From NCBI GenBank assembly GCA_016180085.1, contig JACPBX010000010.1:1-36641 (forward strand): a DNA stretch of 36,641 nt, in the 5' to 3' direction. This stretch comes from Candidatus Woesearchaeota archaeon. Lineage in GTDB: Archaea; Nanobdellota; Nanobdellia; Woesearchaeales; UBA10216. Below are positions 4,453 to 19,130 of the stretch, one piece after another (within the stretch, counting starts at the first letter, position 1; the number at the start of each line of letters is the position of its first letter). The notes under the pieces are model-generated. The model was not told the origin of the DNA. It was given only the letters and a program-made list of their open reading frames with translations, and ran no database searches. Made by a program: the position numbers and the translations under genes.

Positions 4453-4983
4453 TTATTCCTTGCAGCAGTCAATGATCTTCTTAAATATTTCTGCTATCCT
4501 GGAGAGCCCTGTCTTGCTTGCTTCCTTGCCAGATGAGCCTGTTTCGCTGCTTACACCGCTTATGCTGCTCTTGGCGTCTTTCCCGATGCTTTCCGGGCTG
4601 TTAACAGCCCAAAACAGGCTGTAAAGGTTGAAAGCCTCAATGAACATCTCCTCTGCTTCCTTCTTCCTGCCGTCATGCAGGTATTTTGTGCCCACTTCAG
4701 TCAGCCTCATGGTTGCAGCCAGCAGGTGCTTGCTGATGCACCAGTCCTCGCCCTTGTTGTCCCTTACTATCTTCTTCAGCAGCCTTTTCCTGAGCTCCCT
4801 GGTCTGCTCAAGCATAGGCAGGTATTGCCCGTTGTTTGTTTTCACAAAGCTGAACAGGAAGTGCTCTTCCAGGCTGATGAGGTTCATTATGCCTATGCTA
4901 AGGTCCTCGCCCAAGGACAGGTCCAGCTTGTTCCTGGCCTTAACCTCTTCAACCTGCTTAATGAAGTTTTCAACGTCTTTCAT
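4453..4983 (-). CDS. Helical hypothetical protein (EEH / WCISKHLL motifs, C-terminal CCKE)
   Basis: ATG at 4983 overlaps the upstream stop (ATGA); coding-like composition. Confidence 0.75.
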   Translation of the reverse strand: MKDVENFIKQVEEVKARNKLDLSLGEDLSIGIMNLISLEEHFLFSFVKTNNGQYLPMLEQTRELRKRLLKKIVRDNKGEDWCISKHLLAATMRLTEVGTKYLHDGRKKEAEEMFIEAFNLYSLFWAVNSPESIGKDAKSSISGVSSETGSSGKEASKTGLSRIAEIFKKIIDCCKE

Positions 4984-5540
4984 TTTGTCACAAAATAAAA
5001 TACCGCGCCGGTTGCCGCCAGGCAAAGCAGCGTTACTATTATGCCCTGAAACGGCATAAGGCTCTTCCCGCCGCGAACCTTCCTTATCCACTTGTGCAGG
5101 GCAAACGCGCCAACAGTCACAGCTGTGCCTGCAAGCGTTCCCACGAGCAGCTTGTCAACGCCAAACAGGTGATATGCCGGATCGGGCGAGCCGAGAAGCT
5201 TCGCCAGGTAAAGCGTCAGGAGAGTAAGGCCCAAAGATGCTATGATAAAAATCGTTGACTGGTATGGCATTAGCTCCCTGCCACTCCTTTTCTTTTTCAG
5301 CCATGTGCCAAACCAAAGTGCAGTGGAAACGACAAACCCGCCAATAAAAGTCCCTGTAACGGCATCATCAACGCCAAGAAACCTTGTTGCCGCAACCCCT
5401 CCGGCGGTTGCTGCAGCGCACAGAGGGCAGTGCGCCATCACAGGCTTTGCCATTGCCAAAGCAGATGCAGCTGACGCAGCCACTCCAGCAGCAAATTTCA
5501 ACGCAACGCCCCTGGCTCCCCTGAATGGTCCCATTTGCAA
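4980..5540 (-). CDS. Membrane protein with HCPLC motif after a signal-like segment
   Basis: AHCPLC, GVDDAVTG, four to five hydrophobic helices. Confidence 0.75.
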   Translation of the reverse strand: MQMGPFRGARGVALKFAAGVAASAASALAMAKPVMAHCPLCAAATAGGVAATRFLGVDDAVTGTFIGGFVVSTALWFGTWLKKKRSGRELMPYQSTIFIIASLGLTLLTLYLAKLLGSPDPAYHLFGVDKLLVGTLAGTAVTVGAFALHKWIRKVRGGKSLMPFQGIIVTLLCLAATGAVFYFVTK

Positions 5541-5560
5541 AACCCTGTGCCTTATGCTGC

Positions 5561-6118
5561 TTATGCTGGCGGCATCGGAGGATTCATGTCCATGCCTCTC
5601 TGCGAAGGCGCAATGCTGTTGTATTTTGTGTCAATAAGGTCCCTGACCTGCTTCAGAGTGTAGCCCTTGTTCAGCATGTCATCAGCCATGACCGCCAGGT
5701 CAACGCAGTATGGGCAGTCAATTGCAGCGTGGTCCTCCCAGTCGCCGCCTGTCTGGACAAAGCAGTCATACAGGTTATTCATCTTGGGAATGGTCTTGCC
5801 CCTGTGGCTCATGGCATGCATCCCGCAGCCGCAATGGCACGTAAGAAACTTGAACTCATCTTTCCTGGCTACTGCAACCTCGTAGGCCTTCATCGTCTTG
5901 GCGTTTCTCGTGGCAAAAGCCGGCAGGTCAAGGCTTGCAGTCACCGCGCCTGTGGCTCCCGCAGCTCCTGTATCTTCAGTCACAGATGCAGCACCCCGGG
6001 CTGCGGGGCTGTGGTCGCTGCTGTCGCCTTCGCCGGAATATAGCTTCATCATAGGCGCGCCAATGCTTAAAACAAGCAACGCAATAATCATGACAGAAAC
6101 CCACTTTGAAATTGCCAT
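5561..6118 (-). CDS. PCYCGC-motif family exported metal-binding protein
   Basis: TCHCGCG...SH...NLYDCF...DHAAIDCPYCVDLA...QVRDLIDTKY; N-terminal anchor; RBS GAGGGTGA. Confidence 0.75.
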   Translation of the reverse strand: MAISKWVSVMIIALLVLSIGAPMMKLYSGEGDSSDHSPAARGAASVTEDTGAAGATGAVTASLDLPAFATRNAKTMKAYEVAVARKDEFKFLTCHCGCGMHAMSHRGKTIPKMNNLYDCFVQTGGDWEDHAAIDCPYCVDLAVMADDMLNKGYTLKQVRDLIDTKYNSIAPSQRGMDMNPPMPPA

Positions 6119-6211
6119 TTTTCCCTCACCCTCGCTGTCGCCAGCTTTGTTTGTCAGCTTTCCGCTAGCTTTTCAGTCTGTGTAAAGCTTTTAGTATATA
6201 AAGTTTTCGTT

Positions 6212-6229
6212 ATATCACAATTTAGATAT
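6212..6229. promoter_or_regulatory. Operator-like site resembling the padR-promoter palindrome
   Basis: ATATCACAATTTAGATAT matches 61-78 at 15/18 positions; 9 nt from the leftward TATA TTTATATA (6202-6195). Confidence 0.45.
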
Positions 6230-6260
6230 GTACTCCAGAAGTCTAAGTTGAAGCGCTAAT

Positions 6261-6468: not shown

Positions 6469-6510
6469 TGGTGGCAAAGCTTTAAATTCGCCTGTTGATT
6501 CCTTTCAGGG

Positions 6511-7011
6511 ATGGCATCGATTGACGACATTGTGGCTGCAATAAATGCCACGCTCTCAGAGGCGGAGCTTAAACAAATACGCCATGGATGGATAGTCCGA
6601 GGCAGGGACAATGGATATCTTAGGCTAGAGCTGGCGCATTCCATAGTTAATGCGTTAGAGAAAATTGACGACCAAACGCTTGAAGGTGAAGCAAAGGAGT
6701 TTTACGCATGGGCTGTTTTTGTAGCAGAAATCATACAAGCTCCAATGCTGAAATTCGAGATTGCTGCGATACCTCACTTAGTTGGCAAAGACAGCAGGAA
6801 AGAAGCCGCGGCGGCTTCCAGGCTATATCTTAAAGGCTTGGATCTTATGAGCGTTTTTGAGAGCGATCCCAGGACTCTGGCAGGCTCCGGTTCCGTAGGC
6901 GTCACTAATGATGAAACGGGAAAGTATAATATGCTTAACAGGGCTGGAGAAGTCATTATACAGGCTTACCAGTCGCTATGGGCCAAAGTAGTTGATGCCA
7001 AAGGAGAATAA
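6511..7011 (+). CDS. Hypothetical protein
   Basis: 166-aa ORF about 25 nt after AAAGCTTTAAAT promoter. Confidence 0.7.
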   Translation: MASIDDIVAAINATLSEAELKQIRHGWIVRGRDNGYLRLELAHSIVNALEKIDDQTLEGEAKEFYAWAVFVAEIIQAPMLKFEIAAIPHLVGKDSRKEAAAASRLYLKGLDLMSVFESDPRTLAGSGSVGVTNDETGKYNMLNRAGEVIIQAYQSLWAKVVDAKGE

Positions 7012-7026: not shown

Positions 7027-7092
7027 TCACTTCTTCTTTTTGCTGCCCTTCTTCTCCTTCATGTCATCGCTGCATCCGCACGTTCCGCACAT
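7027..7092 (-). CDS. 21-aa Cys micro-peptide MCGTCGCSDDMKEKKGSKKKK
   Basis: Perfect GAGGTGA RBS 5 nt before ATG, own TATA (TTTAAA at about 7147-7142), U-rich terminator; below the ORF-track cutoff. Confidence 0.7.
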   Translation of the reverse strand: MCGTCGCSDDMKEKKGSKKKK

Positions 7093-7117
7093 GGCAGTCA
7101 CCTCACATTAAATACAA

Positions 7118-7131: not shown

Positions 7132-7156
7132 TGGCTTGTTCTTTAAATATTTTCCC

Positions 7157-7930
7157 TTAATGACTTTTTGCAAAATCTGTTATGGAACCAAGCTCAGTCT
7201 GAATATCGGTGTCTGCGCTTCCATAACTGATTAATATTTTATCCAAGTCGTTAAAAACGTGATCTCCAAAGCCGTTATTTTGCACGCCGTTGACGTAAAA
7301 CCTAAGCTTTTTGCCTTCCGAATTACAAAACTGCCGATTATTTGGGAACTTAAGGCACGCCTCGTTGAAATCACCGCCTATGCTCCTGAAAAACAGCCAC
7401 AAAGGCACACCAGTAGCGTGCATATGAATGACATCGCCTGTCATTTCAGGAGGCTGCGCGCCTTTATCAACGTGAATAAAGCTGCTGGTTGCATTGGCGT
7501 CCATCTTTGACATGTCCATCGCAAAAGGCTCAAAATCAAAAGCTACGCCGTCCATGTAGACCTTCCAATCAGCATGTATGTGCTGCGAACCCAACACGCC
7601 AATGGTTGATTTAGTGTCCATGTTGCACTGAAGCTGGCCAGAGCTTATGCACATCTCAACAGGCATGCCGCATGCGTCGCATTTGCCATCGTTGTCCTTA
7701 TCCATGAATTCCTTTGCCAATGCAACGTCAAAGCCTGTTAAGGACATACGGCTTAAACGGCTGCCCATTTTATTCGAGTCAACCTCACTTGGCTTACTTG
7801 TTGCTTCGCCACCAGCTTCTTTTTGAAAATTGACAAACGAGGAAATGCTAAAAATCAAAGTGACTAAGACTATAGCTAAAGTTCCATATACTAAATAATC
7901 CTCCTTAACTTTCACTTTCATTTTTCCCAC
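7157..7930 (-). CDS. Membrane-anchored His-rich protein (HxHAD family) with DxDxDG and CxxC
   Basis: TM anchor; DKDNDGKCDAC; HIHADWKVY, FIHV, VIHMHATG, FYVNG, DLDKILISYG. Confidence 0.8.
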   Translation of the reverse strand: MGKMKVKVKEDYLVYGTLAIVLVTLIFSISSFVNFQKEAGGEATSKPSEVDSNKMGSRLSRMSLTGFDVALAKEFMDKDNDGKCDACGMPVEMCISSGQLQCNMDTKSTIGVLGSQHIHADWKVYMDGVAFDFEPFAMDMSKMDANATSSFIHVDKGAQPPEMTGDVIHMHATGVPLWLFFRSIGGDFNEACLKFPNNRQFCNSEGKKLRFYVNGVQNNGFGDHVFNDLDKILISYGSADTDIQTELGSITDFAKSH

Positions 7931-7931: not shown

Positions 7932-8435
7932 TCATTTAGCCTTTGCCACTCCCGCTTTTGTTTTTACAGCTATCTTATCCTTGATTAATAATATAACACT
8001 CAACGCCACTAGCGCTCCACCTGCTGTCCAAAAAATCAAGTTAAACTGCTGTGCAGCCTGGAAAGGAGTGCCGGCAACTATAAGCCCCGCGTTTAGCATC
8101 AAGGCCTTGCCAGAGAGGCAGCCCATTTTCCTCAGCTTGAGCAGCAGCAGAATGCCGAAGAGTATCACCGCAGCGGTCCAGAACGGCACTGCCACTTTCT
8201 GAAGAAAGAGAAGGGGCATTCCAACAACTGTAACCCCAATCAGCGCAAGCAGGGCAATTGCGGCAGTGCAGACGTTGTGGCAGACTGTCCATGAGCTGAA
8301 GATGCCCATCAGGCCGCTTGCGCTGCTGGTTGCGCTCAGGATTTTTTCCTTCAACCCCGTAGCTGCTGGCGCTGCAGTCGGCTTTGCTGTTGCTTTGCCC
8401 TTTGCAGTTTTGGCCTTTACTGCCTTATTTGCCAT
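7932..8435 (-). CDS. Membrane protein with CHNVC motif (possible metal transporter/permease)
   Basis: CxxxC in first helix, four hydrophobic helices; RBS GAGGAG before ATG 8435. Confidence 0.7.
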   Translation of the reverse strand: MANKAVKAKTAKGKATAKPTAAPAATGLKEKILSATSSASGLMGIFSSWTVCHNVCTAAIALLALIGVTVVGMPLLFLQKVAVPFWTAAVILFGILLLLKLRKMGCLSGKALMLNAGLIVAGTPFQAAQQFNLIFWTAGGALVALSVILLIKDKIAVKTKAGVAKAK

Positions 8436-9042
8436 GCTTTCTCCTCGCAGCAGTGTGGCTTTGGCCTTTTGCACCCTTCCACATCTTCAGAAGCCAGAAA
8501 TATACCAGCCCTACAAGGCCGAGCAGCAGTATTACGTACAAAATATTTGTCAAAGTCCAGTAGCCGCTGCCAATGCTGCTGTAGCCGGAACTTCCCATCA
8601 TTCCCTGCGTGTTTTGCCCGAAGCCCATTCCCTGCATCATCCTCATCATGGGCATCATCCTGCCTGCTACTGTGCCCGCCCCCATTATTCCGCCGCTGCC
8701 AATTGCCGTGCCTACGCCTGTGCCTGTGTCGCAGTACATCGCCTGTGCAAGGTTGATATGGAACTGGTCATGGTAAGGTGTGCCTTCCTCAATTCCCATC
8801 ATCCTGTGCATCACATCATGCGCATCGCCAGGATGCATCTGCTCCATCAGGTATTCGCCAATCGCTTCAAGCTGCTCGTTGCCAAGCTCGTCACAGCTTA
8901 CGCCGCTGTCAAAAAGCTCCTTGCCTATGGCAATCTCGCTTTCTTCGCTTCCGCCTTCATGCGCAATTGCGGCAGCCGCCATCACCAAAAATGCAACTGC
9001 AAAAAATACGATAAATATGCCAGAACAATTTGCTTTTTTCAT
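8425..9042 (-). CDS. Met/His-rich exported/membrane protein
   Basis: Signal ending AIAHEG; MEQMHPGDAHDVMHRMMG; GRMMPMMRMMQGMG; C-terminal TM helix. Confidence 0.75.
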   Translation of the reverse strand: MKKANCSGIFIVFFAVAFLVMAAAAIAHEGGSEESEIAIGKELFDSGVSCDELGNEQLEAIGEYLMEQMHPGDAHDVMHRMMGIEEGTPYHDQFHINLAQAMYCDTGTGVGTAIGSGGIMGAGTVAGRMMPMMRMMQGMGFGQNTQGMMGSSGYSSIGSGYWTLTNILYVILLLGLVGLVYFWLLKMWKGAKGQSHTAARRKHGK

Positions 9043-9069: not shown

Positions 9070-9693
9070 CTAACATCCAAACTCCCCGCTAATCGGGCAA
9101 ACGGATGAAGCGTTAGCCTTCAATTTCGGAGTTCCAGGCTCTTTGCCTTTGCTTATGTAATCCTCAGCAATAGTGGTGTTCCACTCGTGCTCGTGGTTCC
9201 ACAGGTTCCAGAAGTGGCGCCATTCGTTCCAGCCAATTCCGAGATGCTTCACATAGATGCCGTTTTCAGCAAGCATCTTCCCAATCTTCCTGCCCGTCAT
9301 GCAGGGCATGCTGTAGCAGTAAACTATGATGTCCTTGTCCTTAGGCAACGCTGCAAACGCGGAAACTATCCTGTCAACGTCGCCGTAGGCTGCTGTGTTG
9401 CGGTCGCTGTATGCCGGAATGTTCACGGCGCCAACTATGTGCTCAGCCTCATATTCCTCTGCGCTGCGCAGGTCAACAAGGACATAGTCATCAACGCCCT
9501 TGTCCATCTTGCCCTTCAGGCTGTGAGGGCTGACGTGGACTGCGTTCTCTGCCAGATAAAAGCCCTTAATAAGCTCATCCTCGCTTGGTTCGGCCGGGCT
9601 TTGCACATTTAAGACCACAACTGCGGCTATTGCCCCGGATACTGCGCCTAATATTAGAGCCAGCATAAGCGTAACAGCTGCCGGTTTCATCAT
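9070..9693 (-). CDS. Membrane-anchored rhodanese-domain protein
   Basis: LVDLRSAEEYEAEHIVGAVNIP, IIVYCYSMPC; ATG 9693 overlaps the osmC stop. Confidence 0.85.
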   Translation of the reverse strand: MMKPAAVTLMLALILGAVSGAIAAVVVLNVQSPAEPSEDELIKGFYLAENAVHVSPHSLKGKMDKGVDDYVLVDLRSAEEYEAEHIVGAVNIPAYSDRNTAAYGDVDRIVSAFAALPKDKDIIVYCYSMPCMTGRKIGKMLAENGIYVKHLGIGWNEWRHFWNLWNHEHEWNTTIAEDYISKGKEPGTPKLKANASSVCPISGEFGC

Positions 9694-10247
9694 TGTGCCT
9701 CGCCTTGCGCCTCGTCTACGCTTTGGGATGCGTGCAGCTCTACACTGAGCTTTATCGGATGCGTCAGGCAATAGATGCCAGGGCACCTGCCAAGTGCAGC
9801 CTGTTCGATTTCCTTTATTTTATTTTTATCTGCGCCGCACTCCACTTCAACTGTTAACTTGGCAGATTCAACAATAGGCTCTTCGCCTAGCCCTAATGGC
9901 TTGCTCAAATTTACCTTATTTTCCGCAGCTACTTTTAGCTTGTTGAGAGGCACACCTTGCTCGGTAGCGATGTTTGCGAATGTCTGTGCAAAGCATGAGG
10001 CAAGCCCAAAGAGGCAGTATTGCACGGGATCTGGCTTAAGCGCGTGCCCACCCGTAAACGCCGGCCCGTCAGCCTCAACAAGTGTCTTGTGGTCTCCGTG
10101 CTGCAGCTCTGCACGAAACTGGGGTTTTCCGTTGCCAAAAACCCATTCGCCCTCGACCTTTTTTATTTTGACAGCCTTACTACTGTCTTTTTTCACTTCT
10201 TCAATAAAATCGGCTGCTTTCTCAACATCTATATTGTTCATGTTCAC
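9690..10247 (-). CDS. OsmC/Ohr-family protein
   Basis: PDPVQYCLFGLASCF...RCPGIYCL conserved Cys pair. Confidence 0.85.
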   Translation of the reverse strand: MNMNNIDVEKAADFIEEVKKDSSKAVKIKKVEGEWVFGNGKPQFRAELQHGDHKTLVEADGPAFTGGHALKPDPVQYCLFGLASCFAQTFANIATEQGVPLNKLKVAAENKVNLSKPLGLGEEPIVESAKLTVEVECGADKNKIKEIEQAALGRCPGIYCLTHPIKLSVELHASQSVDEAQGEAQ

Positions 10248-10278: not shown

Positions 10279-10692
10279 TTATTCGCCAGATTGTTCGCCC
10301 GGTTCGTTCAGGCTGCACCCGCTTTTATCAGCAAGCTGCCCAAAGGTCATTTCCCCTCCAACCCTGCTCTTGTCAGAAAATTCCCAGGTTGGGTAGCCCT
10401 TTATGCCTGCCTCGCTGCAAACCTGAGTCTGGCCTGCGCGGTTTGGAAGGGAGCATTCAACATAATTGACATATTTCCAGCTGCTGCCAAACATTTCCTC
10501 CTGGTTTTGGCAGTGCGGGCACCAGTAAGCGCCGTACATCTTCACGCCGTTTTCGGTAAGGCACTTTGCAAAATCGTCATACTTCCCAGGCTCTTCGGTT
10601 TTCCCGCTTTTCTGCGCGTTTATTGCCATAGCAGCAGCGAAAGCCAAAACAGCGATTATGGCAAGCAGAATCACCTGACTTTTCTTTTTCAT
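10279..10692 (-). CDS. Membrane-anchored thioredoxin-like protein
   Basis: YGAYWCPHC...YVECS...C...IKGYPTW. Confidence 0.85.
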   Translation of the reverse strand: MKKKSQVILLAIIAVLAFAAAMAINAQKSGKTEEPGKYDDFAKCLTENGVKMYGAYWCPHCQNQEEMFGSSWKYVNYVECSLPNRAGQTQVCSEAGIKGYPTWEFSDKSRVGGEMTFGQLADKSGCSLNEPGEQSGE

Positions 10693-10728: not shown

Positions 10729-11904
10729 TTACCGCTTTGCTTCTGCCTTAAGCTGCCTTTTCACAAAATAAAGCAGCAGCGCAGCAAAGGCCAAGAGCAC
10801 GGCTGCCGCAACAAAATTGAATTTTGCAGTGTTCTCAAGCACTGCATCGCTCAGCCTTTCGGTAAGGCCTGTTGTGCGGACCTGGTACTTGTGCGTTATG
10901 AACGCGAATATTGCAAGCGCTGCAAAGATTTCCACTACAGCGGCCAGTTTTCTGGCGTTGCTGCTTGCAATTAGCCTGGAAATAACAAACTTGTGCAAAA
11001 CCAGCGTGGCTGCACCAAGCACAGCTAGCAGGAAAATCATGCCGAGCAAATCAGCAGCTGTTATTATTGTTGTGCCCCTGCTTATTATGAACAGCGCGCC
11101 GAGAAAAATCAGGAGCAGCCCCGAGATGATGTTAGTGCTTGCCAGCAGCAGCTTCTTTTTCCCTACGTTCAGGGTTATTGCAAACCCCCTGATAAGCCTG
11201 CTCTCGGCAAGGTTAAACCTATCATACGCGAACGATACCGCGAAGAGAGGGATTGCCAGGCCAAGCGCGTAAAAGAACAGCAGCAGAGCGGTATAGGCGT
11301 AGTTGTTGAAAACAGCAGCCATTGTGAAAATTCCTGCAATAACAGGGCCTATGCAGGCAGACCAGCCAATCGCGAACAACGCCCCGAATATGAAAGTGCC
11401 CGGGGCATCCTTCGGCAGCCTGCCCCTGAGGTGGATAAACGAGAACCCTTTCCCGAAGAACATCATCACGCCCAGGGCTATCAGGATTATCCCTGATGCC
11501 TGAACCAGGACTGCTATGTCCTGCTGGAACGTCACAAATGAAACCCTGCCGAGCGCGGTTAATGCGATGCCGAGGGCAATGAACGCCAGCGAAAACCCGC
11601 CGAAAAACTCAAGCGTCGTGAGGGTGATGTTCCTGCGGCTTTTCGCTGTGTAAGCGAGGAATGCAGGAAGCAGGGCAACTGTGCACGGCGCAAGGAAGCT
11701 GAGGATGCCGCCGAGGAAAGCGATTAGGAAAGTAACGTTCCTAAGCGTTGACTCGGCCGTAAAGCGGTTGTAGTCCTGAAGCTTCTGCAGGATGTTCAGC
11801 TGCTTCTCAATGCCGCTATCTTCGGCATTTTGAGCGGCAGCATAACTTGCAGCAAGCAGCAGGAAAAGCAATAATGATGCGATGATGCGCAAGGCCGCTG
11901 CCAT
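10729..11904 (-). CDS. ccdA: CcdA/DsbD-family transmembrane electron transporter
   Basis: GILSFLAPCTVALLP and GWSACIGPVI motifs; extra C-terminal helices. Confidence 0.85.
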   Translation of the reverse strand: MAAALRIIASLLLFLLLAASYAAAQNAEDSGIEKQLNILQKLQDYNRFTAESTLRNVTFLIAFLGGILSFLAPCTVALLPAFLAYTAKSRRNITLTTLEFFGGFSLAFIALGIALTALGRVSFVTFQQDIAVLVQASGIILIALGVMMFFGKGFSFIHLRGRLPKDAPGTFIFGALFAIGWSACIGPVIAGIFTMAAVFNNYAYTALLLFFYALGLAIPLFAVSFAYDRFNLAESRLIRGFAITLNVGKKKLLLASTNIISGLLLIFLGALFIISRGTTIITAADLLGMIFLLAVLGAATLVLHKFVISRLIASSNARKLAAVVEIFAALAIFAFITHKYQVRTTGLTERLSDAVLENTAKFNFVAAAVLLAFAALLLYFVKRQLKAEAKR

Positions 11905-11906: not shown

Positions 11907-12530
11907 TTACCCGAACACGATATTTATCTCATCGCCATCACGGGGCATGTAATGGTTAAACTCAGTGTTTTCAACGTCGTTGACGAACATCTTCACAGTG
12001 CCATCAGGGCCGTTGCAATAGTCAAGGATGCACTCGCTGCTGAACTTTTTCTTCCAGACATCACTGAAGAAGTAGCCGAGCTGCATGTTTTTAACCGTGG
12101 GAGCCTGAACCTCCCAGTGCAGGATGTTGTCAGTTGCATGCGTGTGGACAGGCTTATGAACAGAGCCTTCAAGCCCCAAATTCGTAGGGATGGTTACCGC
12201 CTTGCCTTTAATTAGTATAGTAACATGAGGGTGCCAGTGTATTGCTCCTTTCGGAATTTTCGCAGCAAAAGCCTTTTCATCAAAGCCATCGCTGCCGCCA
12301 CCGTCGGGCGTTATTAACGGCTTGTCACCATTGCCGCCCTTTCCAGCGAAAACAAAATAGCCGCCAATAACAATTAAAGCTATAACAGCTGCAACGATAA
12401 TTTTCTTGTTCAAGCCCTTTTTCTTCGGCGCTTCCTTTGGCTGCGCGGTGTGCTTTGCCTGCTTGTGCTGTTCCAGGCTTTCAGGGCTCTGGAATTCCTT
12501 ATTGCAACCGCTGCAGAGATGTTTTTCCAT
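11907..12530 (-). CDS. C2H2 zinc finger + TM helix + His-rich HxH domain protein
   Basis: CSGCNKEFQSPESLEQHKQAKH; HWHPH, VHTH, LHWE, MFVND, RDGDEINIVFG. Confidence 0.8.
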   Translation of the reverse strand: MEKHLCSGCNKEFQSPESLEQHKQAKHTAQPKEAPKKKGLNKKIIVAAVIALIVIGGYFVFAGKGGNGDKPLITPDGGGSDGFDEKAFAAKIPKGAIHWHPHVTILIKGKAVTIPTNLGLEGSVHKPVHTHATDNILHWEVQAPTVKNMQLGYFFSDVWKKKFSSECILDYCNGPDGTVKMFVNDVENTEFNHYMPRDGDEINIVFG

Positions 12531-12573: not shown

Positions 12574-13335
12574 CTACCCCGCCCTTTCCCTGCAGTAGCT
12601 GACAATCTTTTCCTTTGCTGAATCCAGATGCCTTGACGTGCCCTGAACAGCTGCCGCGAAACTGTCGGCTTTCATTTCATCCTCGCTTACCCTGCTGCTG
12701 TCAGGAAAATTTGCAAGCGCATAGAATGGCGAAAGCAGCCTTGCCACATAGCCCGATAGCTTGAGAACCGAAGCCCTGCCCTTTATGTGGGCAAGCTCAT
12801 GAAGCACAATCGCCTCAATCTCCTTTTTCCAAAGAATGTCAAACAGGCCTGCAGAAAGGAAAATCCTTGGCGTGAACAGCGAAAAAGAGAAGGCAACAGG
12901 CGTTGCAGTGTTAAGGATGTACAGCTTTGGCTGCCTTATCGCCAGCCCGCCAGAGTGCCTTTGCACAAGCCTGTTCCAGTGGCTGCCTTGCAGGAGGGAT
13001 GCCTTTCGGGACTGCCTTTTTACAAAGACAATCGGGGCAACCGCAAGGGCTATGACCATCGCAATGACTGCCGTGAGCCCAAGCATCGTCAGTATTGCCT
13101 TCGCCTGGTCACAGCCGGAAAAGTAGCTCTGGCACCCCCTGAAGAAGATGAAGAACAGGAACGGAAACACGAAGGCAAAAACGTGGATGTACAGAAGCGT
13201 AAGGCGCTTCTTCGTGTCAGCGGTTTTGAGCCTTCTCAGCATGACAAGCGCAGCAATCGCTATCGCAAACGACAGGATAACTATGCCCGATTTCAGAGGG
13301 CTCATGAAAAATGCCAGCGTACATTCAGTGCACAT
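12574..13335 (-). CDS. BlaR1/M56-like (M48-related) membrane zinc metalloprotease without penicillin-binding domain
   Basis: Three TM helices then PVAFSF...PRIFLSAGL...IVLHELAHIK...E..AD. Confidence 0.85.
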   Translation of the reverse strand: MCTECTLAFFMSPLKSGIVILSFAIAIAALVMLRRLKTADTKKRLTLLYIHVFAFVFPFLFFIFFRGCQSYFSGCDQAKAILTMLGLTAVIAMVIALAVAPIVFVKRQSRKASLLQGSHWNRLVQRHSGGLAIRQPKLYILNTATPVAFSFSLFTPRIFLSAGLFDILWKKEIEAIVLHELAHIKGRASVLKLSGYVARLLSPFYALANFPDSSRVSEDEMKADSFAAAVQGTSRHLDSAKEKIVSYCRERAG

Positions 13336-13405: not shown

Positions 13406-13756
13406 TTATTTTTTTCCCTTTACAAAACGCTCGTTAAAGTAGCTGATGGCAACATTGCCAAACTTCTCAATCAGCCTGTTAACAGTCTCATCAACGACAG
13501 ACAGCTCAAACTGCTTCCTGTCCTTCTTCGGGAAGTAGACATACCTTAAGCCTCCCCTCGCTGTTTCAATCCTCCTGTCAACAACGCCTTTTTCGAAGAG
13601 CCTGTCAAGAATCACAGCTACGCTTGTCAGGGCAACCTTCCTGCCCTTCTTCAGCTTCTGGTAAATCTCCCTAACCCTCAGCGCCCTGTCAGGCCAAAGC
13701 ACAACCAGCACATCGTTCTCAAGGGGGCTGAGCACTGAACTGAACATGCGCTTCAT
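13406..13756 (-). CDS. BlaI/MecI/CopY-family transcriptional repressor
   Basis: LSPLENDVLVVLW...VREIY...ALTSVAVILDRLFEKGVVDR...YVYFP. Confidence 0.9.
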   Translation of the reverse strand: MKRMFSSVLSPLENDVLVVLWPDRALRVREIYQKLKKGRKVALTSVAVILDRLFEKGVVDRRIETARGGLRYVYFPKKDRKQFELSVVDETVNRLIEKFGNVAISYFNERFVKGKK

Positions 13757-13798: not shown

Positions 13799-13814
13799 TT
13801 GTAAAGCTTTACAA
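13799..13814. promoter_or_regulatory. Perfect 16-bp palindrome in the divergent blaI promoter
   Basis: TTGTAAAGCTTTACAA between two opposed TATA boxes. Confidence 0.55.
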
Positions 13815-13870: not shown

Positions 13871-14554
13871 ATGGTTCTCAAAAAAGACAACAACGCCAAG
13901 CTTCTTGTTCTGGTTGCTGTAGCTGCAGTTGTGCTGCTGCTAAACCAGTGGCAGATAATGGCCATTTCCGACCTGACAGGAGGCAGCGGAGGGTCCTCAA
14001 AAGGGACAAAACTCAACGTCAAGCTGTCAGGCGATGTTGTGCAGGACGCAATAAAGGCAGTAGTCCCAACCGGCACTCCGCTGTATGGCGCAGAACTTGG
14101 CGTGAGCTTTGATGACCCAATAAACAGCCTGAACATACTTGCCAAGCTCGACAGGCAGGTGCCAACCAACACCCTGGCAGAAGCGGAAAAAGCAAGGTTC
14201 ATCAATGTTGGAACAAGAATCAGCTGCGAGTTCTGCTGCGGCGCGCCATCCGTGGTTGACCAAAGTGGAAGAGACCTCTGCGGCTGCTCCCACGCTGCAT
14301 CGTTCAAGGGCCTTTCAAAATACCTTATTAAAAACCATCCGGGCGAGTGGAGTGATGACGAGATACTGCTTGAGCTGACAAAGTGGAAGGCGTTATATTA
14401 TCCCAAGAACATGGTCGAGAAGGCTGTAGCTGCACTGGAGAATGGCATGGAGCTCACGCCTGCAGTGCTTAACGACAGGGATTTGCTCAAGAAAATATCA
14501 GCAGGCGACACAACAAGCATCGGAGATCTCCCGTCAATGGTCGGCGGATGCTAA
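13871..14554 (+). CDS. Membrane-anchored Cys-cluster protein ending DLPSMVGGC
   Basis: TM anchor; ISCEFCCG, CGCSH; C-terminal MVGGC*. Confidence 0.8.
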   Translation: MVLKKDNNAKLLVLVAVAAVVLLLNQWQIMAISDLTGGSGGSSKGTKLNVKLSGDVVQDAIKAVVPTGTPLYGAELGVSFDDPINSLNILAKLDRQVPTNTLAEAEKARFINVGTRISCEFCCGAPSVVDQSGRDLCGCSHAASFKGLSKYLIKNHPGEWSDDEILLELTKWKALYYPKNMVEKAVAALENGMELTPAVLNDRDLLKKISAGDTTSIGDLPSMVGGC

Positions 14555-14641
14555 GTTAGAGTGTAGGTAAAAAATCATATTCGTTGTGGCTGCTGCGGCT
14601 GCAGCGGCGAAATGAAAGCGATCATGAATGAGGTGGTAAAG

Positions 14642-14881
14642 ATGGTTGAAGCAAGCAAGATTTTGCCGGCAGTGCTGATTGCCTTAGTCCTGGTTTCTGC
14701 GGTGCAGGCGTTCCAGCTGAATTCCCTGAAGGAAAAGGTTGAGTCAGGCCAGTTTTCGGCTTCGGGAAGCTCAAAAGGGCCCGCCACCGGAGGCAGCACC
14801 GGCAGTGCAGTGGCTAGTTCTGGAAGCACAGGCGCAACCAGCAGCATCGCAGACCTTCCGCAAATGGTTGGCGGGTGCTGA
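14642..14881 (+). CDS. Small TM protein with Gly/Ser linker ending DLPQMVGGC
   Basis: RBS GAGGTGG before ATG 14642; helix + flexible linker + MVGGC*. Confidence 0.8.
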   Translation: MVEASKILPAVLIALVLVSAVQAFQLNSLKEKVESGQFSASGSSKGPATGGSTGSAVASSGSTGATSSIADLPQMVGGC

Positions 14882-14927
14882 AGGCAGAAATGGCTAAGAG
14901 GCTAAAAGGTGTTGGGAGGTTCCTGGA

Positions 14928-16172
14928 ATGACAGAACAAAAAAAGGCCAATGAGCATCATGCCAAGCATCACGCAGGAGAGCATTCAGGCAAGCAGCAGC
15001 ACCACCACGAAAAAGAACAAAAAGAAATTAGGATAACGCTTCCTGAAATCAAGGGCTTAAACCTGTCGGCAATTGCAACTGTCTCAGCTGTCGCCCTGCT
15101 CGTGATTGTCGTTTTCCAGGCATTCCAGGCCTTTACCCTTTCGCAAAAGCTTAATGCACTGGCGGCAGAAGCGCAGGAGCTTAACAGGCTGCCGGCAGTG
15201 CAGCTGACTGCGATTAGCGTGGAATCCTCAGTTGACTGCGAGCAGTGCACGCAGGTTGATGCCCTGATAAGCGAAGTGGAAAAGGCAAGAGCCAACATAA
15301 CGGCATCAACAGTTCTAAAAGTCAATGATGCCAGATCGCAGGAGCTAATCGACAAATACGACATTGCACGCCTGCCTGCAGTAATAATAACAGGCGAGAT
15401 TGACAAGGTAGCTATCACAGGCTTCACAAAAGTCAACGACGCACTTATATCGCAGACCCCGCCGCCTTACGTGATCCCAACAGGAAAAATCAGAGGGCTT
15501 GTGAGCCTGACATATGTGAATGTTTCCAGCTGCAGTGAGTGCCCTGACCTAATGGGTGTTGTGCAGCAGCTAAGGGCACAAATCAAAGTAGCAGACTTCA
15601 AGGCGGTTGACAAAGACAGCGAGGAAGGCAAAAAGCTTGTTGCGGAGTATGAAATGACAAGGCTGCCGGGAATCCTCCTTTCAAGCGACATCAACGAATA
15701 CTCACTGGCAGACCAGCTTGCACAGGTTGGCACTGTTAAGAAGGACGGGTTCATAGCGCTGGGCTCAAATGCCCCGTACCTGAACGTTTCTACAGGAAAG
15801 ATTACAGGCATTACGCAGCTCATACTGCTCAACGACAGCAGCTGCACTGGCTGCTATGATGTCACGATGCACGTTCCGATAGTGAGGAGATTCCAGGTAA
15901 ACCCTGCAACAATAAAAGTGACTGATGCTGCAAGCGCGGAGGGCAAAGAGCTAATCTCCAAATACAAAATAACAGCTGTGCCAACCATCCTGGTAACGGG
16001 CGATGTTTCGCCCTACGAGCAGCTTCTTGGCATCTGGCCAACTGTTGGGACAACAGAAAAGGATGGCGCATTGGTCTTCAGGACCATGAGCGCAATCTCC
16101 GGAAGCCCCTATAAGGACCTGCAGACAGGAAAGTTAGAATCAAACCTGCCACAGCAAACACAGCAGCAGTAG
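14928..16172 (+). CDS. Membrane-anchored protein with three CxxC thioredoxin-like repeats and His-rich N-terminus
   Basis: CEQC, CSEC, CTGC, each followed by ...KY.I..lP.ii; HHAKHHAGEH...HHHE. Confidence 0.8.
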   Translation: MTEQKKANEHHAKHHAGEHSGKQQHHHEKEQKEIRITLPEIKGLNLSAIATVSAVALLVIVVFQAFQAFTLSQKLNALAAEAQELNRLPAVQLTAISVESSVDCEQCTQVDALISEVEKARANITASTVLKVNDARSQELIDKYDIARLPAVIITGEIDKVAITGFTKVNDALISQTPPPYVIPTGKIRGLVSLTYVNVSSCSECPDLMGVVQQLRAQIKVADFKAVDKDSEEGKKLVAEYEMTRLPGILLSSDINEYSLADQLAQVGTVKKDGFIALGSNAPYLNVSTGKITGITQLILLNDSSCTGCYDVTMHVPIVRRFQVNPATIKVTDAASAEGKELISKYKITAVPTILVTGDVSPYEQLLGIWPTVGTTEKDGALVFRTMSAISGSPYKDLQTGKLESNLPQQTQQQ

Positions 16173-16297: not shown

Positions 16298-16548
16298 ACG
16301 CTAACTAAAGAATAAATCTTTTTCATATGCCTTTCGGCCATTTTTCCAAAAATCTTTCGATGTTCTCACTAAATATTTTGCCTTTGCTGCAAACGCTTCA
16401 AGTTTTAGGGAATTTTTTGAAAAGTTTTCAAGAACTCCGAAAATAATTTTTAACAATTTTAGTAAAGTTTATTAAGTAGTTAGCATCTTATCTGCTAAGA
16501 CCGTGGTGTACAGGTAAGCGCATGCTATTTGCGCTATTTTTTCTTTTT

Positions 16549-16722
16549 TTATTCCTCAAACCTTCCCTTAACCTTGTACTTCTCAGAAGTCAGAATCTCA
16601 TCAACCTGGCGGTCATAGCTTGTCAAAGAGGCATCTTTTGATGAGAACAGAAGCCTGTAAGCAACATAAGCAGCAGCCGCAGCAACTATCCACATTATAA
16701 TTTTCTGGTCAAGCACAGCCAT
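16549..16722 (-). CDS. 57-aa single-TM small protein (MAVLDQK...EILTSEKYKVKGRFEE)
   Basis: Open frame with TM helix, upstream TTTAAATA; below the ORF-track cutoff. Confidence 0.7.
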   Translation of the reverse strand: MAVLDQKIIMWIVAAAAAYVAYRLLFSSKDASLTSYDRQVDEILTSEKYKVKGRFEE

Positions 16723-16829: not shown

Positions 16830-17054
16830 ATGGCGAGAAGAAGGAAAAACCAGGCAGATGCAACCAAGAACCGCAGGCTTGACGAGTTCTTAAAAGCCCT
16901 GAAGATTGAAGGCGAAAAGAGGGACAAAATAGTAGCCTTTGTTGAAGACCTTACCTTCAAGCAGCTGAAGCAGCTCAGCACCGGCATAAAGGAGGAAGAC
17001 GAGGGAAAGAAGAAGCTGCCAAAGCTAAGGCTCAGGATGCCGTGGCAAAAATAA
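16830..17054 (+). CDS. Small basic hypothetical protein
   Basis: 74-aa ORF with coding-like codon use. Confidence 0.6.
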   Translation: MARRRKNQADATKNRRLDEFLKALKIEGEKRDKIVAFVEDLTFKQLKQLSTGIKEEDEGKKKLPKLRLRMPWQK

Positions 17055-17062
17055 GCCATCAG

Positions 17063-17443
17063 TCAAGCCAAGTCCCTATGTGTCTCATACATAAAGGCTG
17101 CGTGTGTGTTGTGCTTTTTTAGTTCCTTTGTTAACAGCCTTGCAATGTCCTTAGACTGCATTTCCTTCTTCCTGTGAACGTGCTTGGTAACTGTTTTCGC
17201 GACTGCACCGGCAATTCGTTCGCATTCCCTCTCATTCATTAGGACAACGTAGCACGCGGCGTAGGCCGAGCCGTAAACCTTGCGCTCATCATAGCCCTCG
17301 CACAGGCCTGTAGCGCGCTTCACCACGCAGTGCACGCCCTCGCTGTGGCCGTGCTTCTGCTGTTTCTGCTTAACCTGCAATGATTTTAGCTCCCTCGCCC
17401 TGCTTTCTGCCCTGTAAACTGCCATTTTTACCATTCCAGTCAC
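17063..17443 (-). CDS. Stand-alone ATP-cone-like protein
   Basis: VVKRATG..E.YDERKVYGS...IA..V...SKDI...L; coupled (ATGA) to the upstream ccdA-like gene. Confidence 0.7.
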   Translation of the reverse strand: MTGMVKMAVYRAESRARELKSLQVKQKQQKHGHSEGVHCVVKRATGLCEGYDERKVYGSAYAACYVVLMNERECERIAGAVAKTVTKHVHRKKEMQSKDIARLLTKELKKHNTHAAFMYETHRDLA

Positions 17444-18150
17444 CCCAGGTTTACCGTGCCGTTGGCTATAAGCATGAGCAGCCAGCCCATCGCTACCAGA
17501 AGCAGGCCTATGAGCAGCCTAATTGCGCCCCTGCTTTCCTGCTTCCACTTCTTAACCTCGTGAAGCCTCTTCCCGGCTGCGACCATGATAAGTATTACGA
17601 TTAGCGGCGCTACAAAGATAATGTTGTAAAGCACCAGCATAAGGAATGCTGAAAAGTCGAAGTATTGTGAAAGAAGCGTGATAATGGCAAGGTAGGGAGC
17701 GCCAGTGCATGGCAGCTCAACACCTGCCACAAACGCGCCAAGCAGCATAATGCCCGGAATAGTGACCTTTGACGCGTAGCCATGCAGCTTTTTGGCAAAA
17801 AGTGGCGGGATGGCAAGCGAAAACCATCTTCCATACCAGAAGTAGTCCTTTACCTCGAAAAGGCCTGCAATGATTATGATGGTGCCAACTGCAATGGCGA
17901 TGTATTCGCTCAGATATAATGGCAACCCTGAAAGGAAGTACATCAGCCCAAGCCCTGCGAGCAGGTAAGTCACGAACACTGCAAAAATGTAAAGCCCTCC
18001 CAGAAGCAGCATCTTTTTCGTTGACTGGTGGGTTGCCAGCAGCACAGAGATCATCAGTATAAGGACACCTATGGCGCATGGATTAATTGAGTCAATAGCA
18101 GCAGCACCCGCTACTGTTACCAGGGTTGGAAGGTAAGCCTCAACTGCCAT
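17440..18150 (-). CDS. Second CcdA/DsbD-like membrane protein
   Basis: AIDSINPCAIGVL and VELPCTGAPYLA Cys-Pro motifs. Confidence 0.85.
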   Translation of the reverse strand: MAVEAYLPTLVTVAGAAAIDSINPCAIGVLILMISVLLATHQSTKKMLLLGGLYIFAVFVTYLLAGLGLMYFLSGLPLYLSEYIAIAVGTIIIIAGLFEVKDYFWYGRWFSLAIPPLFAKKLHGYASKVTIPGIMLLGAFVAGVELPCTGAPYLAIITLLSQYFDFSAFLMLVLYNIIFVAPLIVILIMVAAGKRLHEVKKWKQESRGAIRLLIGLLLVAMGWLLMLIANGTVNLG

Positions 18151-19039
18151 TCAGTGCACCCCTTTTGAGAGCAACCTCGTAGCTTTCGCACATCCGCTCA
18201 GTCTTATCTTTTGCTACAGGGTCAAACTCGAATACGATGCAGTCGCCAGGAGGAACATTGCCGAAAGGCGAGGGCGCATAGCCCTCGTAGCCTGAGCTGC
18301 CAAGCTTTTCTTGCACTATCCTTCCATCAACTGCCTTGTAAACAAACACCTGCAAAGTTCCAGGCATGCCAGCTTCGCCAGGGCAGCTGTCGCCATCCCT
18401 CATTGTGACAATGCCAGAATCGGTTGGCAGGCTAAACACTCCCGGATGCAAATCACCGCCCACGCTCCTGAAGAAGCTGCCAATGCTTACATCGCTGAAG
18501 TCAACAACCACGCCTTCGATGTGCATGCGGTTGTCGCCGTGCTCGTGCAGCACTGATGAGCCAACCCTGTTGGAAAGCCCTTCCGGGTCAACAAGCTCAA
18601 GATGTTCTCCGCAGCGCCAAACCTCAAAGTCAGCATGCCAGTGGACAGGGCCGGATGTTTTGGAAACAGCATTCAGGTAAATCGTGGAACCGGCAACATA
18701 AGCTGTAACAGCCACAACAACTACCACAATGGACCAGAAAAGCAGATGCGAAACCAGCGGGCTTGCCTTTTTGCTTTTCCTTTTGGCAAGCACAGAGACA
18801 GCAACCAAAATAGCAAGAGCCGCTGTTCCCAAAAAGACCGCGCGCAGCGAACCCTGCCTCATTGCCTCGTCCAGCATAATAACACTACTTACGCTGCTTT
18901 CTTTTTCGCCCAGTTCCATATCATGCTCATCGGCTTCGGTGCCGTGTGCATGCGCTGGCAGGGCAAACAGCATCAGAAAAACAAACAGGACTACAAGCGA
19001 TAAGGCAGTAGCCGCAGATGCCAAAAGACCATTTCTCAT
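18140..19039 (-). CDS. Membrane-anchored His-rich HxHAD-family protein
   Basis: AHAHG signal end, TM helices, HWHADFEV, LHEHGDNRMHIEG, IGSFF, GDCIVFEF. Confidence 0.8.
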   Translation of the reverse strand: MRNGLLASAATALSLVVLFVFLMLFALPAHAHGTEADEHDMELGEKESSVSSVIMLDEAMRQGSLRAVFLGTAALAILVAVSVLAKRKSKKASPLVSHLLFWSIVVVVVAVTAYVAGSTIYLNAVSKTSGPVHWHADFEVWRCGEHLELVDPEGLSNRVGSSVLHEHGDNRMHIEGVVVDFSDVSIGSFFRSVGGDLHPGVFSLPTDSGIVTMRDGDSCPGEAGMPGTLQVFVYKAVDGRIVQEKLGSSGYEGYAPSPFGNVPPGDCIVFEFDPVAKDKTERMCESYEVALKRGALNGS

Positions 19040-19049
19040 CTTTGCCTTC

Positions 19050-19130
19050 TCAGCAAAACTCGCACACGTTTTTCTTCTGCACAGCCCTTTTGCCGCCCTT
19101 AACGTTGGCAGAAGTTTTTCTGGCTTTCAC
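19050..19130 (-). CDS. 26-aa basic micro-peptide ending NVCEFC
   Basis: GAGGTGA RBS, 5-nt spacer, GTG start; first position of the operon; below the ORF-track cutoff. Confidence 0.6.
   Translation of the reverse strand: MKARKTSANVKGGKRAVQKKNVCEFC

Follow-up and report, generated by a model that had tools for sequence, protein, structure and literature searches.

The window analysed here, 36,641 nucleotides (nt) long, is a whole contig (C41) of a 1.0-Mb genome in 45 contigs that is 82.8% complete; given this completeness, genome-wide negatives are reported as "not found". The window proteins have homologues that are named as Candidatus Woesearchaeota and belong to metagenome-assembled genomes from groundwater; the organism is therefore placed among the DPANN archaea. 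Positions 4453–19130 hold four co-directional gene runs, in which genes are separated by 0–70 nt or overlap slightly. One minus-strand run (13756→7157) comprises blaI, blaR, HxH-2, ccdA1, a gene for a thioredoxin (Trx) with a CPHC motif, osmC, and genes for a rhodanese, a Met/His-rich protein, a CxxxC membrane protein, and HxH-1; a plus-strand run divergent from it (13871–16172) comprises MVGGC1, MVGGC2, and Trx3. Both other runs lie on the minus strand, one with HxH-3, ccdA2, and an ATP-cone-like gene (19039→17063), the other with genes for a PCYCGC protein, an HCPLC protein, and a CC-tail protein (6118→4453), followed by an SDR gene. Genes were inventoried from an open reading frame (ORF) listing and from Pfam and NCBIfam profile searches against curated cut-offs.

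The original prediction had described this stretch as a single system of about 15 kb and some 20 co-located, mostly membrane-anchored genes. All of the genes that it listed are present, including both MVGGC tails, the HCPLC motif, and the Met/His-rich protein; 16 of the 22 proteins of the stretch have at least one hydrophobic segment, and the families that it named (CcdA1, PCYCGC, rhodanese, OsmC, BlaI, BlaR, and the triple-CxxC protein) score above their Pfam cut-offs. However, only MVGGC1, MVGGC2, Trx3, BlaI, and BlaR travel together widely, and the 15 kb do not form one system; PCYCGC, the Met/His-rich protein, rhodanese, OsmC, and PadR-TRASH accompany this core in only 1–3 of the 36 full-flank loci defined below. 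The stretch is an accessory island, made up of a real conserved cassette and lineage-specific additions. The core and its regulatory sites are as follows.

12574..13335, minus strand: BlaR, a sensor-less BlaR/PetP-like M56/M48 zinc protease of 253 amino acids (aa) (Pfam M56, PF05569, 33.1 bits; cut-off 31)
13406..13756, minus strand: BlaI, a BlaI/CopY-family repressor without Cys or His (PF03965 Penicillinase_R, 52.4 bits; cut-off 22.6)
13799..13814, no strand: 16-bp perfect palindrome TTGTAAAGCTTTACAA of the divergent promoter, a probable BlaI operator
6181..6191, no strand: 11-mer TGTAAAGCTTT, a second copy of the operator half, 62 nt upstream of the PCYCGC gene
13871..14554, plus strand: MVGGC1, with a membrane anchor, a helical domain with SCE[FY]CC...CGC.H, and the tail LPxMVGGC-COOH (family alignment)
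14612..14881, plus strand: MVGGC2, with a membrane anchor, a Gly/Ser linker, and a tail as in MVGGC1
14928..16172, plus strand: Trx3, with a His-rich cytoplasmic N-terminus, a membrane anchor, and three thioredoxin-like domains (PDI/PDO-like)

Conservation and distribution of the core

We surveyed 80 loci around MVGGC1 relatives from a species-genome collection, labelling ORFs with iterated profiles of the window proteins; synteny counts were restricted to loci with enough flank, and a full-flank set (n = 36) had at least 5 kb on each side. The conserved core that emerged consists of the repressor BlaI, the sensor-less protease BlaR, the Cys-cluster protein MVGGC1, the mini-protein MVGGC2, and the multi-thioredoxin protein Trx3; about half of the loci also have a CcdA-type gene in the vicinity (within 5 kb in 19 of 36 full-flank loci). 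MVGGC2 lies immediately 3′ of MVGGC1 in 66/79 loci and Trx3 no more than 2.5 kb downstream of it in 49/66, while the 2.5 kb upstream of MVGGC1 contain BlaI in 40/62 and BlaR in 41/62 loci. Other neighbours in the full-flank set are less frequent: small Trx (12), HxH (8), and the CxxxC membrane protein (7) are followed by rhodanese (3), PadR-TRASH (3), PCYCGC (1), and Met/His-rich protein (1), with OsmC in the range of 1–3. The genes thus do co-occur in other genomes, and chance clustering was rejected since the same neighbours recur across distant genomes.

The MVGGC1 core was found in 293 species genomes of DPANN archaea and bacteria of the Candidate Phyla Radiation (CPR). Archaeal carriers belong to the Woese-, Aenigmat-, Nano-, Micr-, and Iainarchaeota; those of the CPR belong to the Magasanik-, Buchanan-, and Parcubacteria and show the order blaI-blaR-MVGGC1-MVGGC2-Trx3, with HxH after Trx3 in two of the six CPR loci displayed. 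Presence is patchy within the order to which the window belongs, as MVGGC1 occurs in 32 and HxH in 23 of a sample of 151 genomes, and MVGGC1 was not found in a 99%-complete genome of the same family. Such a patchy, accessory distribution is what would be expected of a resistance or stress island.

Cysteine-tipped proteins and the BlaI/BlaR switch

MVGGC1 and MVGGC2 both end in [ND]-L-P-x-[M/Q]-V-G-G-C-stop, and Gly-Gly-Cys is conserved in 100% of about 80 members of each family. The MVGGC1 family, with 325 matches in a protein collection, is invariant in S-C-E-[FY]-C-C, in C-G-C-x-H, and in the last five residues of the alignment; only two longer, fused forms were seen, neither with an added Pfam domain. 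The Met or Gln state of the tail is identical in the two proteins of a locus in 71/71 cases (67 M/M, 4 Q/Q, none mixed), a co-variation that suggests one common reader of both tails; the four Q-tail loci probably form one clade.

No Pfam or NCBIfam model matched MVGGC1, MVGGC2, or HxH, NCBIfam gave no match for ten unnamed proteins of the window, and in the ESM Atlas MVGGC1 and the HxH domain fell in unnamed clusters only. A PDB sequence search showed no solved structure covering MVGGC1, its profile finding no match at E up to 10, and the literature that we searched held no description of the cassette as a unit or of MVGGC1, MVGGC2, or HxH. The central families map to no described pathway, and the Cys/His positions are conserved; as the genes also co-occur in other genomes, none of the three conditions named as refuting the original prediction applies. 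Homology between MVGGC1 and the PCYCGC protein is not claimed: profile comparison gave a probability of 7%, and only a local CGC.HA motif aligns.

The AlphaFold2 model of MVGGC1 is helical (predicted local distance difference test score, pLDDT, 84.5), and the periplasmic domain of CcmH (PF03918; 2hl7) tops both structure searches (Foldseek and VIA-align) as the one match that stands out from the others. This match would fit a thioreduction branch of cytochrome c maturation, in which electrons would pass from CcdA through a CcmG-like thioredoxin to a CcmH-like MVGGC1 for the benefit of an unrecognised heme protein, a role that we regard as extremely improbable. The match covers the C-terminal helical part of MVGGC1, with a CxxC in a loop (residues 119–122 of the 227-aa model) at what we take, by residue arithmetic rather than on coordinates, to be the place of the CcmH CxxC; however, its Z of 5.4 (root-mean-square deviation 3.4, 77/82 residues) is within the chance range for a helical domain according to the structure-comparison tool. 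Fifteen MVGGC1 members searched against Pfam at E up to 10 gave noise only and no CcmH signal, the motif is ISCE[FY]CC here but LRCxxC in CcmH, and MVGGC1 has an extra CC...CGC.H cluster as well as the Cys tail. No CcsA/CcmC/CcmF gene (PF01578) reached the cut-off in the genome, and none of 28 examined proteins of the window, among them every protein of the cluster, contains CxxCH. A role in cytochrome c maturation was therefore rejected, as the original prediction had anticipated for CcdA; its further observation that no metal ATPase was seen in the window extends to the whole genome, in which no P-type ATPase was found.

C-terminal lipidation of the MVGGC tail was also rejected, as MVGGC stands at the extreme C-terminus after a polar linker and is not a lipobox behind an N-terminal signal helix. 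One tblastn query did not find Lgt in this genome. Elsewhere, Lgt, a bacterial-type prolipoprotein diacylglyceryl transferase, is encoded in ten core loci, at L114:3119–3886 (plus strand; PF01790, 264 bits) and in L055, L057, L059, L072, L077, L078, L080, L092, and L100; some of these loci are labelled as DPANN archaea. In 14 loci there are genes for small proteins that combine a lipobox at the N-terminus with an internal VGGGC(G). These observations suggest bacterial-style lipoprotein processing in these archaea.

BlaI and BlaR form a repressor–protease pair. BlaI shows a sub-threshold match to CopY/TcrY, but the C-terminal CxCx4CxC metal site of CopY is not found in this protein, which has no Cys or His at all. 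In BlaR, the HExxH motif (H179, E180, H183) is conserved in 100%, C68 in 98%, and C75 in 60% of sequences; both Cys lie, by predicted topology, in the loop between membrane helices 2 and 3. This loop would face outwards provided that the HExxH domain lies, as it does in BlaR1 and PetP, on the cytoplasmic side. BlaR has no penicillin-binding sensor domain, as the protein ends after the protease, Pfam (E up to 0.01) reports M56/M48 only, and the score against the NCBIfam BlaR1 model is 18 bits (cut-off 400).

The palindrome at 13799..13814 is probably the BlaI operator; its core, TGTAAAGCTTTACA, is retained in six close relatives. BlaI-type TACA/TGTA inverted repeats are present upstream of MVGGC1 in 32/81 loci, as compared to 25/810 control windows (3%), in the form TTTACA-N5-TGTAAA in 25 loci and CTACTACA-N3-TGTAGTAG in seven CPR loci. 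Judged from these operators, BlaI and BlaR are the regulator of the core and not mere members of the gene set. The window contains no second full palindrome, and the only other exact copy of the 11-mer is that at 6181–6191; the PCYCGC run may thus be co-regulated with the core through this half-site.

Thiol-redox and candidate metal-binding proteins around the core

The genes most often associated with the core encode HxH proteins, CcdA-type transporters, and a small thioredoxin.

7157..7930, minus strand: HxH-1, with a membrane anchor, a GKCxxCGM (heavy-metal-binding-domain-like) motif, and an HxH beta-grasp domain
11907..12530, minus strand: HxH-2, with a cytoplasmic C2H2-like finger, one membrane helix, and an extracytoplasmic HxH beta-grasp domain
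18140..19039, minus strand: HxH-3, with three hydrophobic segments, an N-terminal His/Glu stretch, and an HxH domain
10729..11904, minus strand: CcdA1, a CcdA/DsbD-type membrane thiol-disulfide electron transporter (PF02683 DsbD_TM, 39.0 bits; cut-off 27.1)
17440..18150, minus strand: CcdA2, a divergent DsbD-superfamily membrane protein (SfLAP, 32.7 bits, below the cut-off of 35)
10279..10692, minus strand: small Trx, membrane-anchored, WCPHC (Pfam Thioredoxin, 22.3 bits, just under the cut-off of 23.5)

The three HxH proteins, proposed earlier as paralogs, carry one common domain. The AlphaFold2 model of HxH-2 (pLDDT 84) is a beta-grasp that matches 3u7z (DUF4430; Z 7.6) and transcobalamin, intrinsic factor, and haptocorrin (Z 6.6–7.2). 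While the fold is alike, sequence identity to DUF4430 and to the transcobalamin beta-domain, which are soluble-ligand-binding beta-grasps, is about 10%, and Pfam gave no match; unlike these domains, the HxH family has an HxH...HxH...H.E cluster, in which H98, H100, and H138 are invariant and H129, H131, E140, C167, and C172 nearly so. An exhaustive profile search (E up to 0.001) collected 3,696 clusters at 50% identity, with uninformative cluster names for the representatives. Among ten long members, a fusion to Cupredoxin_1/COX2 occurs in three, to a heavy-metal-binding domain in one, and to Redoxin in one; the C2H2-like finger of HxH-2 is present in 47 of the 148 top family members. HxH ORFs of core loci abut a CcdA-type gene in 16/32 cases and, in the flanks of HxH matches from 12 genomes of the same order, HxH-3 homologues adjoin CcdA2 in four other genomes.

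CcdA1 conserves C74 and C184, one in each half of the membrane core, in 100% of 38 sequences and, by sequence, may pass electrons from a cytoplasmic thioredoxin to an exported Trx-fold partner; exported Trx-fold genes adjoin CcdA. The prediction of a second CcdA/DsbD-like protein stands in part, as CcdA2 has no match to the DsbD_TM model and only a weak NCBIfam match to DsbD, but keeps C25 and C148, in its first and fourth predicted membrane helices, in 96% of 26 sequences; the CcdA1 and CcdA2 profiles recover the same CPR proteins. The CPHC thioredoxin likewise misses its Pfam cut-off but has 25 homologues in related loci. Relatives of this small Trx located right after MVGGC2 show a monothiol WC-x-[YF]-T in place of CxxC. 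Trx3 matches Thioredoxin_3 (PF13192, 40.8 bits; cut-off 24.8), also has NCBIfam matches, and carries the motifs CEQC, CSEC, and CTGC, of which the first and third are conserved in 98% and the middle one in 68% of sequences. A VKOR-driven oxidising pathway was rejected, as no VKOR was found in the genome. A further CcdA (DsbD_TM, 38.5 bits) is encoded at positions 110–1317 of contig C22 of the same genome (G000); it stands at the contig start, with its upstream context lost, and is followed by a 112-aa protein with C-x-x-C-x-x-C.

The remaining proteins of the island are listed below, together with a regulator gene outside the stretch.

4453..4983, minus strand: CC-tail protein (unk212_CC), cytoplasmic and helical, C-terminus CC-K-E; last gene of the PCYCGC triad
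4980..5540, minus strand: HCPLC membrane protein, with HCPLC after the first hydrophobic segment and an apparent internal repeat
5561..6118, minus strand: membrane-anchored PCYCGC/CYCXC-family protein (PF13798, 54 bits; cut-off 25)
7027..7101, minus strand: MCGTCGC micro-peptide of 21–24 aa (ORF)
7932..8474, minus strand: CxxxC membrane protein (mem180), with an invariant C-H-x-x-C in the first helix
8425..9042, minus strand: Met/His-rich protein, with two hydrophobic segments and 19 Met and 8 His in 205 aa
9070..9693, minus strand: rhodanese, single-domain and membrane-anchored, C-terminus ...FGC (PF00581, 56.5 bits; cut-off 22.2)
9690..10247, minus strand: OsmC/Ohr-like peroxiredoxin without a hydrophobic segment (PF02566, 58.4 bits; cut-off 27.5)
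17063..17443, minus strand: ATP-cone-like small cytoplasmic protein (PF03477, 18 bits, below cut-off); last gene of the HxH-3 triad
19050..19142, minus strand: possible basic micro-peptide ending in CEFC, of uncertain reality (weak positional match in L051)
127..546, plus strand: PadR-family regulator with a TRASH-like Cys C-terminus; accessory neighbour outside the stretch

Four accessory modules surround the core (PCYCGC-HCPLC-CC-tail; CxxxC membrane protein-HxH-Met/His-rich; rhodanese-OsmC-Trx; and HxH-CcdA2-ATP-cone-like). In close relatives (55–92% identity) the core is constant and the flanking modules are exchanged, even at 80–90% identity, while distant genomes keep two sub-modules as units, HxH-3-CcdA2-ATP-cone-like, which recurs in G131, G057, and L051, and PCYCGC-HCPLC-CC-tail. 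The CC-tail gene adjoins the HCPLC gene in G076 and G144 and a CcdA gene in CPR loci; its protein, which had no Pfam or NCBIfam match and probably starts at the Met of MKDVENF, conserves H77, C118, and H122 in 100% and C209/C210 in 91% of 11 sequences. The HCPLC protein has four hydrophobic segments and likewise no Pfam or NCBIfam family match. The PCYCGC protein shows a sub-threshold match to the NCBIfam CYCXC (seleno)protein family, of which selenocysteine forms are listed in a 2026 review (PMC13188914), and OsmC shows one to an OsmC-related (seleno)protein family. In mem180, found in 17/80 core loci, C65, H66, and C69 are conserved in 100%, 89%, and 95% of sequences; the pair mem180-HxH-1 recurs in G144, G104, and L069, and homologues of the Met/His-rich protein occur in G076, G144, and six of the 80 core loci. 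Of two predicted Cys micro-peptides, the MCGTCGC peptide has counterparts in two relatives (90% and 75% identity) and adjoins HxH-1 in one of them, L051, while the second is only weakly kept (44% identity, E 0.003, at the same position in L051). For the predicted PadR-TRASH regulator, the PadR match is clear (57.4 bits; cut-off 27), but the TRASH match (23.2) is below its cut-off of 27; homologues lie near the core in 7/80 loci.

The rhodanese, which has one hydrophobic anchor segment and probably starts at the Met of MMKPAAV, raises the alternative of a sulfur or persulfide carrier, in which the Gly-Gly-Cys arms would bear sulfane sulfur like the GGCGG arm of SoxY and would be loaded by the anchored rhodanese. 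The tail does resemble this carrier arm, the rhodanese gene is part of the operon, and CcdA1 and the rhodanese both match the rhodanese/DsbD fusion TsoB below threshold. However, a rhodanese gene stands beside the core in no more than three of the 36 full-flank loci, the window showed no Sox enzymes, although no search was aimed at SoxZ, and MVGGC1 is modelled as helical and not as a SoxY beta-sandwich; as a BlaI/BlaR switch and copper neighbours would also be unexpected for sulfur oxidation, we consider this alternative very unlikely.

The window has further features. A 166-aa ORF at 6511–7011 (plus strand), mid-island and on the opposite strand, had no family match, and none of the fetched loci contained a homologue; it may be restricted to this lineage or be no gene at all. 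Two small ORFs, one of 57 aa with one membrane helix (16549–16722, minus strand) and a basic one of 74 aa (16830–17054, plus strand), are kept beside Trx3 in most close relatives and have no recognisable function. A tRNA with a long variable arm, called tRNA-Arg (CCT) by ARAGORN, lies between the Trx3 operon and the HxH-3 triad (16207–16298, minus strand). The left end of the window has a GC content of 0.43 as compared to about 0.50 and encodes a LysE transporter, a Bro-N protein, and PIN/AbrB-like pairs (670–1293, minus strand; 1653–2558, plus strand), and may be a mobile or cassette-type region. The remaining window genes are archaeal housekeeping genes, such as those for aIF2-gamma, S6e, and HisRS.

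Copper context, proposed function, and known systems

A gene for a cupredoxin, a P1B ATPase, a CopZ-like protein, or a heavy-metal-binding-domain-like protein was present in the fetched flank of 34/80 core loci. By marker, P1B-type ATPases were found in nine loci, CopZ-like genes in seven, and genes with heavy-metal-binding-domain motifs in 11, while a small Cupredoxin_1/COX2-like protein with the CuA-type motif C-x3-C-G-x-G-H-x2-M was found in 24. Such cupredoxins, one of them encoded at L103:14408–14836 (minus strand), occur in organisms presumed to lack heme-copper oxidases. As a rough estimate, chance would place a cupredoxin next to the core in a few per cent of loci (a few genes per ~1.2 Mb), as compared to the 30% observed. 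De novo clustering of core-locus neighbours identified further families that are missing from the window, namely DUF302 (11 loci), the Lgt described above (10), a MarR-like membrane-anchored regulator (14), and two Cys-motif membrane proteins (14 loci each).

The frequency of cupredoxins near the core raises the alternative that the cassette is an assembly line for extracytoplasmic copper proteins, similar to TlpA-Sco-PCuAC for CuA, in which CcdA and Trx would reduce an apo-cupredoxin and a chaperone (HxH or MVGGC1) that inserts copper. HxH-cupredoxin and HxH-redoxin fusions do occur, and HxH retains a C-x4-C pair and adjoins CcdA. Yet the island is complete in this genome, in which no cupredoxin scored above cut-off, and many genomes carry cupredoxins without the cassette; a repressor–protease switch and a patchy distribution also suit a stress response better than housekeeping maturation. 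We judge an assembly line to be quite unlikely.

The main rival is a repair pathway for oxidative damage that acts on thiols only and has no metal role; CcdA-fed thioredoxins would keep surface Cys reduced, and the arms, encoded by genes and tethered, would stand in for a low-molecular-weight thiol. Among the known parts, CcdA, Trx, and Trx3 are the most conserved, an OsmC peroxiredoxin belongs to the same operon run, and the monothiol C-x-x-T Trx right after the arm genes would suit mixed disulfides with a single-Cys arm. The tolerated replacement of the tail Met by Gln also favours this rival, which has a streptococcal precedent in CcdA-Etrx-MsrAB, likewise without c-type cytochromes. It leaves unexplained, however, why HxH is fused to cupredoxin or heavy-metal-binding domains and why copper genes are enriched around the core, as well as the presence of the TRASH regulator and the Met/His-rich protein; the window showed no MsrA/B, and the nearest studied sensor-less BlaR system answers to copper. 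On balance a thiol-only pathway appears unlikely, less so than the other alternatives.

The reading that we prefer, and to which we give about an even chance, is that of a stress-inducible envelope island for protection against soft metals, most likely copper, and for protection of thiols, in which CcdA-fed thioredoxins keep Cys arms reduced. The surface proteins of the island all carry conserved Cys or His, and both DsbD-superfamily membrane proteins adjoin an HxH protein. A role of copper is suggested by the HxH fusions, the GKCxxCGM motif of HxH-1, the 34/80 loci with copper genes, PadR-TRASH, and the Met/His-rich protein. Where the original prediction had proposed Cu/heavy-metal capture or disulfide repair, the extracytoplasmic theme of thiol redox and soft metals holds, and the choice of chemistry is one that we infer.

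Several observations weigh against this preferred reading. The tail Met is replaced by Gln in four Micrarchaeota-type loci, which argues against Met as a Cu(I) ligand. PCYCGC, Met/His-rich, and PadR-TRASH genes are rare beside the core (1–3/36 loci), so that the strongest metal-flavoured genes of the window are lineage-specific additions. Cupredoxin_1 is common in the order (106/151 genomes, with the unpublished G121 and G132 among those counted; nothing else here depends on these two), and part of the cupredoxin adjacency may therefore be background; genomes with the cassette seemed only modestly enriched in cupredoxins, and genomes that are related do not count as independent. In this 83%-complete genome, neither a cupredoxin above cut-off nor a copper ATPase was found. 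In addition, CPHC is the motif of oxidising DsbA, so that electron flow at the CPHC Trx could run either way.

In the proposed envelope island, Cu(I) or Cu-driven thiol oxidation would be sensed at the near-invariant Cys of the BlaR loop, perhaps via the Cys-tipped arms, and the BlaR protease would then remove BlaI, inducing both divergent operons. The Gly-Gly-Cys arms and the Cys5-His cluster of MVGGC1 would bind or pass metal or absorb the oxidising hit, while CcdA would bring in cytoplasmic electrons with which the anchored Trx and Trx3 would reduce the arms and further surface thiols again or reshuffle them. The HxH proteins, the Met/His-rich protein, PCYCGC, and the CxxxC/CxxC membrane proteins may bind or move metal, and OsmC and the rhodanese may handle peroxides and sulfane sulfur, respectively. 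This mechanism as a whole is built by analogy, with sensing after PetR/PetP and the relay after DsbD/DsbC, Scs, and CcdA-Etrx; the arm would correspond to that of SoxY and to C-terminal metal-passing tails.

A more tentative proposal, which we hold to be doubtful, is that the arms represent a new class of gene-encoded, membrane-tethered thiol carriers shuttling Cu(I) or reducing equivalents at the cell surface and that, together with HxH, they form a new envelope system of ultra-small episymbionts in both domains. In such a carrier, and with similar reserve, both proteins might show their arm to one reader (the BlaR loop Cys, the monothiol Trx, Trx3, or the Cys5-His pocket) in cells without a periplasm or synthesis of low-molecular-weight thiols. 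A large part of microbial diversity consists of DPANN archaea and CPR bacteria, which live attached to other cells and whose surface biology is almost unknown. A cassette that spans two domains, with a conserved repressor–protease switch and largely nameless families, offers a testable entry to how such cells withstand copper and oxidants when they have no periplasm and little redox metabolism of their own. If the proposals above are true, PetR/PetP-type metal-sensing protease switches extend beyond cyanobacteria, and a protein-borne Cys arm joins the few known carrier-arm chemistries.

In its architecture, the cassette is a variant of a CcdA/DsbD-fed envelope thiol relay combined with a BlaI/BlaR-type proteolytic switch. 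Copper catalyses the formation of wrong disulfides, against which DsbD/DsbC and ScsB/ScsC protect. Like the proteobacterial Scs and DsbD/DsbC systems, whose protection of the envelope against copper is known, the cassette combines a DsbD-superfamily electron importer with exported thioredoxin-fold proteins. However, homology is limited to the DsbD core and the Trx fold, Trx3 has three tandem domains on a membrane anchor, and Scs has neither Cys-tipped arm proteins nor HxH beta-grasp proteins. The arm of SoxY, a flexible C-terminal GGCGG on an Ig-like beta-sandwich that is paired with SoxZ, is similar in being a flexible C-terminal peptide with Gly-Gly before a single Cys; the arm described here is common to partner proteins, but its Cys is the very last residue (...VGGC-COOH), and it is borne by a helical protein with a Cys cluster or by no more than a linker.

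In streptococci, CcdA supplies surface-anchored thioredoxins for extracellular repair without c-type cytochromes, according to one report (PMC7034828); unlike in that CcdA-Etrx-MsrAB system, no MsrAB was seen in the window, and the partners here are MVGGC, HxH, and Trx3. For the switch, the closest parallel is PetR/PetP, which consists of a BlaI/CopY-family repressor and a sensor-less M48/M56 protease; degradation of PetR requires PetP and copper, and conserved Met in the 14-residue helix 2–3 loop of PetP are the proposed ligands (bioRxiv 10.1101/2020.07.31.226407). Both systems share the repressor–protease gene pair, a repressor without the CopY Cys motif, and a protease without a penicillin-binding domain, with HExxH in its cytoplasmic part and a short helix 2–3 loop with conserved soft-ligand residues. 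They differ in the loop ligand (Cys, 98% conserved, here and two Met in PetP), in their targets (MVGGC/Trx/CcdA operons here, plastocyanin and cytochrome c6 there), and in their hosts, as PetR/PetP is cyanobacterial, while the pair described here, to which a copper response is assigned by analogy, belongs to DPANN archaea and CPR bacteria.

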